From: Myxococcota bacterium
GTDB lineage: Bacteria > Myxococcota_A > SURF-8 > G963663525
Reading direction: 5' to 3'
Length of the DNA: 20,455 bases
Assembly: GCA_963676915.2 (NCBI GenBank)
Contig: CAXXVK010000037.1
Span: 1-20,455 of the forward strand
In this document: one piece after another, positions 15,665 to 15,820 of the stretch
Layout of the letters: every line of letters starts with the position of its first letter
Position numbering within the stretch: position 1 is the first letter of the stretch
Position numbers and translations under genes: made by a program
Notes under the pieces: model-generated
The model's input: only the letters and a program-made list of their open reading frames with translations
Database searches by the model: none
What the model was told of the DNA's origin: nothing

Positions 15665-15820
15665 CTCATGCGGGCTCATCGGTGTACAATGGCCCTAGCG
15701 ACTGTTCGGGCTTCCCGGACAAAACGGGCGGCGGATCCAGCTACACACGGGTTGAAAAACCCAAGGTCGGGACGATCTCGCCGCCCGATGCTCCCTGGGC
15801 GGCCGCCCAGGGAGCATCAC
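15665..15820 (-). ncRNA. Predicted IS110 bridge RNA: 5' hairpin, target-binding loop, donor-binding loop
   Basis: Hairpin 15787-15818. Stem 15725-15737/15774-15787 encloses CCCGACCT and TGTAG (target match). Downstream ACAGTCGCT and TACA match the donor. RNA ends are approximate. Confidence 0.85.

Follow-up and report, generated by a model that had tools for sequence, protein, structure and literature searches.

An IS110-group element of a Myxococcota bacterium with a predicted IS621-type bridge RNA in its left end and an extragenic hairpin repeat as its apparent target

Does the non-coding end of a small insertion element encode an RNA that would guide the element both to its target and to its own ends? 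The question is raised by the window, the whole 20,455-nucleotide stretch analysed here (Myxococcota bacterium, assembly GCA_963676915.2, contig CAXXVK010000037.1, positions 1 to 20,455), where an earlier note, made from the sequence alone, had read a bridge RNA with four guides on the minus strand upstream of a recombinase gene. Bridge RNAs and their mechanism were described in 2024, and a bridge RNA has been predicted in 85.7% of IS110-group elements (Durrant et al. 2024). We propose, with a probability of roughly 0.88, that the window carries one of six copies of a 1173-bp IS110-group element (single CT counted; minus strand of the window), composed of a DEDD/Ser recombinase and an IS621-type bridge RNA in the left end. 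Homology, the element boundaries, a conserved structure, guide-flank matches and guide-flank covariation support this directly. Transcription of the RNA, its binding to the protein and catalysis by the element would be expected by homology with IS621.

The element and its immediate surroundings are delimited as follows, in window coordinates.
15872-15878, minus strand: left half of the target site, GCCCGAC, the 3' arm of a hairpin (15872-15894) resembling repetitive extragenic palindromes (REPs); from repeats and the six-copy comparison
15870-15871, minus strand: left core dinucleotide CT, found before TGTATG in all six copies
15647-15869, minus strand: left non-coding end, 223 nt, predicted to encode the bridge RNA; from copy comparison and an empty-site contig joining 14696 to 15869
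14714-15646, minus strand: recombinase open reading frame (ORF), 310 amino acids plus stop codon; from Pfam and alignment to solved structures
14699-14705, minus strand: left donor ACAGTCG, the final 7 nt of the right end; from string and copy comparison
14695-14698, minus strand: right core CT (14698-14697) and right target AC (14696-14695), present in all six copies, with CTAC lying within the REP consensus

The six full copies in the genome (contigs C37, C72, C22, C43, C53 and C19) are 99.7-100% identical. All share a left junction of CT followed by TGTATGATC and a right junction of ACAGTCG-CT followed by AC, and the RNA region is identical in all of them. The 8 nt preceding the left end read CCCGACCT in five copies and ACGGACCT in C53, and the sequence beyond CT-AC differs in each of the six. 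Since the repeat includes CTAC, we assign the AC behind the right-hand CT to the target and not to the element, and the right end thus extends to 14699, about 15 nt after the stop codon. For the window copy the junctions are GCCCGAC-CT-TGTATG on the left and ACAGTCG-CT-ACGG on the right, in agreement with the target and donor reconstructed in the earlier note, and the 1173 bp and 310 residues likewise bear out its estimate of a compact element of about 1.17 kb and about 310 amino acids. The boundaries are independently confirmed by an empty site, for which a single further sample (runs X2 and X3) has contigs that fuse 14696 directly to 15869; their flanks differ by about 5% from the window, hence this is the site of a relative. 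Only contigs were used in this comparison, and their depths were not taken as copy numbers; a joint from 14980 to 15476, seen in a single contig (side 29), was set aside as weak.

The protein carries the domain pair of the IS110 family, i.e. an N-terminal DEDD RuvC-like domain (PF01548, DEDD_Tnp_IS110, 2e-25, residues 15-156 of a 321-aa ORF) and a C-terminal Tnp domain (PF02371, Transposase_20, 6.3e-18). The best match among solved structures is the ISCro4 transposase (PDB 9t56; E 1e-35, residues 3-301), which was compared by protein alignment only, and the IS621 transposase matches over nearly the full length (E 3.1e-30). Residues D7, E51, D93, D96 and S232 align with D11, E60, D102, D105 and S241, which form the composite active site of IS621 (Hiraizumi et al. 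2024). The start codon is the ATG at 15646, the one used by homologues; an ATG at 15679 was rejected, as it lies inside the donor-loop hairpin described below and homologues start at the METVGID position. The element further combines a long left end with a short right end, lacks terminal inverted repeats and has a CT core at both junctions. In the IS1111 group, which shares the recombinase family, it is the right end that is long and holds the guide RNA, and the subterminal inverted repeats measure 7-17 bp. Here the right end measures about 15 nt and the RNA model matches only upstream of the ORF. With the RNA upstream in a 223-nt left end and a short right end, the element belongs to the IS110 and not to the IS1111 group.

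What structure does the left end encode? Folding and comparison point to three modules.
15787-15818, minus strand: 5' stem-loop, a perfect 32-nt palindrome folding as 14 bp with a GGCC loop; from folds and repeat search
15725-15787, minus strand: target-binding loop module, its basal stem formed by 15787-15779 and 15777-15774 with 15737-15725, A15778 bulged; from helix 1 covariation
15748-15763, minus strand: inner hairpin of the target loop, U-GGGUU-UUUC-AACCC-G; from folds and helix 2 covariation
15655-15710, minus strand: donor-binding loop module, closed by CCC (15710-15708) with GGG (15657-15655); from RNAalifold and helix 3 covariation
15672-15695, minus strand: donor-loop hairpin, GGGC-CAU...AUG-A-GCCC; from helix 4 covariation

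Folded as single sequences of the minus strand, 225 nt and 169 nt reach -98.9 kcal/mol (z -4.75) and -86.6 kcal/mol (z -4.20), respectively, and none of 200 shuffles folds as well as the real left-end sequence. Either fold shows the 5' hairpin together with the stem and the inner hairpin of the target loop, all of which had been read by eye in the earlier note; every string that it listed stands on the minus strand where it was placed, including TGTAG at 15745-15741 and TACA at 15686-15683. The palindrome is indeed perfect, with 16-nt arms that are 100% complementary, and relatives have other palindromes at this position. In the basal stem, CGGGCGGCG(A)GATC (15787-15774) pairs with GATCCGCCGCCCG (GATC-CGCCGCCCG, 15737-15725), and the inner hairpin contains the string GGGTT-TTTC-AACCC at 15762-15749. 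The closing stem of the donor loop, which the earlier note had found unclear by eye, was recovered by comparison as the CCC/GGG helix listed above.

The comparison draws on 53 loci that are at most 51% identical (scan, one genome per species) and on relatives that match more strongly, in four same-order genomes out of 21 related genomes searched: G009 and G007 at 60%, G003 at 54% with eight copies, and G005 at 53% with eight copies. The regions upstream of the recombinase genes share the whole architecture and differ in their helix sequences. In a first MAFFT alignment, RNAalifold missed the target-loop stem because of register shifts; the structure was then written by hand from the window sequence, a covariance model (R1) was built from MAFFT alignment A3, and realignment with Infernal yielded the alignment A4, 36 distinct rows fitted to R1. 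The model matches 47 of 56 sources, each time immediately upstream of the recombinase gene, on the same strand, and 19 of 20 further sources. The nine sources without a match are L008, L017, L018, L031, L051, L059 and L061-L063, most of them partial protein matches. In A4, the basal stem of the target loop (helix 1) is paired in 88.9% of cells, with 12 of its 13 pairs changing on both sides; for the inner hairpin (helix 2) these values are 76.2% and compensatory change in three of six pairs, for the CCC/GGG closing helix (helix 3) 98.1% and two of three pairs, and for the donor-loop hairpin (helix 4) 95.7% and three of seven pairs. The closing helix is CG in 20 rows, AU in 15 and UA in 1 at one pair, and CG in 31 and UA in 5 at another. 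Overall, 88.7% of cells are paired compared to 60.2% in shuffles, and 20 of 29 pairs have compensatory changes, counts that the fitting of A4 to the model inflates; sliding the 3' partner by 1-3 columns leaves 34-46% paired. [quoted passage not shown] We note that 13 of 13 sequences agree at A15778, G15773, G15748, G15707 and G15671; mapped by position, these bases probably sit at the places of the conserved flipped A and syn G bases of IS621.

Do the strands of these loops match target and donor as guides? The assignments are as follows.
15764-15771, minus strand: left target guide (LTG), CCCGACCU (DNA CCCGACCT); 8/8 nt match the flank in five of six copies and 6/8 in C53; covariation
15741-15746, minus strand: right target guide (RTG), GUGUAG; CT-AC follows the right end in all six copies; covariation
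15697-15705, minus strand: left donor guide (LDG), ACAGUCGCU (DNA ACAGTCGCT), repeating the final 7 nt of the right end with the core, 9/9; covariation
15661-15670, minus strand: right donor guide (RDG), re-assigned here as CAU-GA-G-CAAG; IS621-like position and pattern, covariation in L022/L053 and L023
15739-15740, minus strand: handshake position of the target loop; C15740, directly 3' of the RTG, is complementary to position 7 of the donor (G), not to that of the target (C)
15659-15660, minus strand: handshake position of the donor loop; G15660, directly 3' of the RDG, is complementary to position 7 of the target (C), not to that of the donor (G)

The LTG has the same sequence as the left target and core, hence it would pair with the bottom strand. 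In the RTG, GUAG (15744-15741) complements CT-AC of the top strand, the two 5' bases forming an optional extension. Together, LDG and RDG are complementary to the joined right and left ends. Each of the four guides includes the core, as defined by Durrant et al.

Guide function was assessed in the relatives through the longest word common to a loop strand and its own flank or end, compared with 5000 permuted pairings. The LTG shares 6.83 nt with its own flank versus 4.71 when permuted (29 unique pairs), the RTG 5.06 versus 3.87 (34 unique pairs) and the LDG 7.91 versus 5.43 with its own end (22 unique pairs); in each case 0/5000 permutations reach the observed value, also with one row per distinct guide. 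The earlier assignment of these three guides, and the covariation with target and donor that an alignment of homologues was expected to reveal, are thus borne out. Individual loci illustrate the changes: the RTGs of L022, L023, L030 and L024 complement CT-CGACTTCG, CT-CTCCC, CT-TCGAT and CT-GAGCT, respectively, the RTG of L028 also follows its right flank, and the LDG changes with ACGGTTG in L030 and with ACAGTTG, ATAGTCA and ACAGCCG elsewhere. The LTG or LDG of several relatives mismatches CT at its second core position; in IS621 this LDG position is reported to be left unpaired (LDG A123-C130, with A131 paired elsewhere).

The same matches could act as DNA, as recombinase-bound subterminal repeats or DNA guides of the IS200/IS605 kind, or could belong to a regulatory 5' untranslated region, with no guide RNA involved. 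The LDG being a direct repeat of the right end fits such a reading, as does the overlap of the 3' strand of the donor loop with GGAAGGG, a sequence resembling a Shine-Dalgarno (SD) motif 8 nt before the ATG. However, the sequence with which LTG and RTG covary lies outside the element, which a protein-binding repeat leaves unexplained, the RNA helices are preserved by compensatory changes, and the protein is homologous to recombinases that were solved with bridge RNA. We consequently give an RNA-free explanation scarcely any weight and retain the bridge RNA.

For the right donor guide, the earlier note had proposed TACA (15686-15683), the one of its four guides that does not stand. The left end starts with TGTA, of which TACA is the reverse complement, and L013 has CATTGTA in the same loop. 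However, this string forms part of the apical loop of the donor-loop hairpin, which has 9 nt in the window and is 3-4 nt long or gapped in most relatives, and in the alignment of relatives the hairpin is missing altogether in the Neisseria group. The RDG of IS621 is moreover reported to lie 3' of the donor-loop stem-loop and to be discontiguous: A157-U158 pair with dT14-dA13, U159-U160 are flipped, G161 forms a non-canonical pair with dT12, and C162-G165 pair with dG11-dC8. In the window, the segment 15670-15661 has this position and pattern: the left end's ATG would pair with CAU (15670-15668), G15667 and A15666 stay unpaired, G15665 stands as a wobble opposite T, and CAAG (15664-15661) pairs with CT-TG. 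It is also this 3' segment that changes with the left end, with GCAAAC facing GTTTGT in L022/L053 and GCTAGG facing CCTAGT in L023. We therefore re-assign the RDG to 15670-15661 and consider a guide role of TACA, for which a string match speaks, highly improbable. In the permutation test, the RDG shares 5.33 nt with its own end versus 4.93 (18 unique pairs), reached by 11/5000 permutations, or 133/5000 with one row per distinct guide; this covariation is weak because the donor ends are conserved.

Directly 3' of both right guides, the handshake positions agree with the rule that position 7 of the non-cognate DNA is the pairing partner (Hiraizumi et al. 2024). In the target loop, donor position 7 is paired in 30 of 30 rows and the loop's own target position 7 in 3 of 26; in the donor loop, target position 7 is paired in 25 of 28 rows and its own donor position 7 in 2 of 30. 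These positions are mostly invariant, and the few independent changes are confined to L028, where U goes with A, and to L022/L053, where C goes with G.

What, then, is the target? The sequence CCCGACCTAC occurs 133 times in the 5.18-Mb genome, compared to about 10 occurrences expected by chance from simple arithmetic, and stands at the 3' end of a consensus hairpin, TGTCGGGC-loop-GCCCGACCTAC, with 200 matches in the genome when both strands are counted. Two such hairpins lie in tandem directly upstream of the window copy, at 15872-15894 and 15906-15928. The element thus has as its natural target CCCGAC-CT-AC, the 3' arm of a REP-like hairpin that is abundant in the genome. The layout of left half, CT and AC is the same as in the IS621 target, ATCAGGC-CT-AC (Durrant et al. 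2024). In G003, the LTG is CCCGACCU as in the window, and the flanks read CCCGACCT in eight of eight copies; in G005, the LTG is CCCAUCCU and the flanks read CCCATCCT in eight of eight, as part of a different hairpin repeat; in G009 the single LTG-flank comparison matches (1/1). The sister elements of G003, G005 and G009 hence document natural retargeting by two LTG substitutions, CCCGACCU to CCCAUCCU, with a change of REP family. The REP repeat of the window is shared by the related genome G003, and a variant whose arms are CCCATCC occurs in G005 and G009. The copy in the region of C53:154836 (L005) lies outside any REP hairpin, its left flank ACGGACCT matching the LTG at 6/8 positions, and looks like an off-target insertion.

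How could the RNA be made? In the computed junction of right and left ends, two half-promoters come together.
14712-14717, minus strand: TTGACT, the -35 half of the junction promoter, overlapping the stop codon
15862-15867, minus strand: TATGAT, the -10 half, the promoter being complete only in the circular form
The junction reads TTGACT-17-TATGAT, a consensus match (and only that) at 10 of 12 positions, and 13 of 24 distinct junctions of relatives score at least 9/12. A promoter reconstituted at the circle junction has been reported for IS621 (Durrant et al. 2024), and according to a 2026 paper, integrated IS621 copies express bridge RNA weakly as well. As a promoter, TGGTAAAAT just upstream of the 5' hairpin was rejected, being only an extended -10-like string that is not conserved in relatives. 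By eye, the Desulfobacterales-type loci L014, L015, L054 and L019 have a near-consensus internal promoter, TTGACC, 17 nt, TATAAG or TATAAT, directly before the 5' stem-loop and about 60 nt upstream of the target-loop stem; the window has only TGGTAAAAT there.

Based on these features and on IS621, the element would operate as follows. Excision would yield a circle in which right and left ends are joined, creating the TTGACT-17-TATGAT promoter, from which the left end would be transcribed. [quoted passage not shown] In the target loop, GUAG of the RTG (optionally GUGUAG) would pair with CT-AC of the top strand. In the donor loop, the LDG ACAGUCGCU would pair with the terminus of the right end and the core, and the discontiguous RDG, CAU..G-CAAG, with CT-TGTATG of the left end. 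A recombinase tetramer would then exchange strands at the CT core, presumably assisted by the handshake bases C15740 and G15660.

Several observations weigh against an intact, RNA-guided element. The donor loop is absent from the single-sequence minimum free energy structure, so that of the modules expected in the minus-strand fold only the 5' hairpin, the target-loop stem and the inner hairpin were obtained, and the donor module rests on comparison through RNAalifold and covariation. With the MAFFT alignment A3 the paired cells amount to 83.3% and the compensatory pairs to 13 of 29, related rows are not independent in the covariation and permutation counts, and the RDG covaries weakly, as stated. 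The left flanks of L039, L048, L032 and L016 share only 4-6 nt with the LTG, and that of G007 shares 6 nt. In a search of Rfam 15, no family reached its gathering score. The joint at the empty site skips 1172 nt, with 1173 expected, and comes from one sample only. Finally, the recombinase ORF is intact in four of the six copies, including that of the window, and frameshifted in C22 and C72, so that the earlier description of the element as intact holds for those four, and a promoter scan of the integrated element returned 0 full sigma-70 sites.

The last two points would also be expected if a genuine IS110 element with a bridge-RNA-like left end had become inactive here, the copies being recent relics whose RNA is not made or used; further remains in the same genome, namely a truncated copy, a left-end remnant and an RNA relic (the latter two solo), fit this as well. 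On the other side stand the four intact ORFs, an RNA that is unchanged in six copies of 99.7-100% identity, the retention of all catalytic residues, and the absence of the insertion at the site in a relative of about 95% identity, which has its own diverged copy elsewhere. Inactivity is in our view unlikely, and a bridge recombinase system with a predicted guide RNA remains our preferred interpretation.

In C22 (8625-9801) and C72 (55442-56617), length differences of 1-2 nt break the ORF at 265 and 277 aa, respectively, and may be real frameshifts or assembly errors. The solo left-end remnant (G000:C60:183797-183912, L008) is about 88% identical and comprises a REP hairpin and the first ~58 nt of the left end; it ends exactly at the expected start of the 5' stem-loop, with unrelated sequence beyond. 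The truncated copy (G000:C58:51-473, L007) has an intact REP target CCCGACCTAC, a few bases and then only the last ~345 nt of the element; it is thus 5'-truncated, without the RNA and most of the ORF, and has CTACTTGCT on both sides. The RNA model also has a seventh match, which is diverged (G000:C27:18608-18744, minus strand, L088 1609-1745; 39.6 bits); it has no recombinase gene, lies upstream of a 462-aa ORF and looks like a relic of another bridge-RNA left end.

Among the closest known systems is IS621 of Escherichia coli, a bridge recombinase with a 177-nt bridge RNA (PDB 8wt6 and others), compared to which the window element is known here from its sequence alone. Both have the same domain pair and catalytic D/E/D/D/S residues, the same left-end RNA layout with a 5' stem-loop and two internal-loop stem-loops as target and donor loops, a CT core, a 4-nt core-proximal RTG, handshake positions, an RDG that is discontiguous and includes a G:T wobble as well as two unpaired bases, a junction promoter and REP-type targets. 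They differ in the protein, at many positions of the near-full-length alignment (E 3.1e-30), in the left target, which is CCCGAC here, and in the number of LTG bases matching the flanks, 8 here and 9 in IS621. The 5' hairpin of the window element is moreover a perfect 32-nt palindrome, with about 50 nt between the junction -10 box and the hairpin. At the sequence level, the element thus appears to have every feature of an IS621-type system. ISPpu10 and ISPpu9 of Pseudomonas putida, compared by description only, are also reported to insert into repeated extragenic palindromes. The element is a new example of an already described mechanism and leaves the knowledge of that mechanism unchanged. 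It provides a well-delimited natural bridge recombinase system, in which target, donor and four guides are mapped to single bases, and a clean natural case of guide-target co-evolution. Screens of IS110 orthologues have been reported, and the element is a reasonable candidate for such screens; it may be a programmable ortholog, as the earlier note inferred.

The donor loop raises a further point regarding the messenger. GGG 15657-15655, the 3' strand of the closing helix, lies within GGAAGGG, the only SD-like sequence, 8 nt before the ATG, and the RDG abuts it. This overlap suggests, from the sequence, that guide and messenger roles compete. Because the closing helix overlaps the sole SD-like sequence and is kept by compensatory changes in relatives, folding of the bridge RNA and binding of the recombinase may hide the ribosome-binding site of the same transcript, as a switch between guide and messenger and hence an autoregulation, an idea that we put forward tentatively. 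Titles and abstracts found in a literature search contain nothing on occlusion of a ribosome-binding site by bridge-RNA folding.

Two Rfam matches below the gathering score were set aside: mir-341, which covers only the palindrome, and sX15 (RF02234), at 30.2 bits against a threshold of 55 (E 0.011) on the opposite (+) strand, window 15650-15796. On a Xanthomonas plasmid, sX15 and the complementary asX7 have been reported, and the chromosome of Stenotrophomonas maltophilia has 10 homologues (Schmidtke et al. 2011, PMC3300014). This pair may represent the left end of an IS110 element, in which asX7 would be the bridge RNA.

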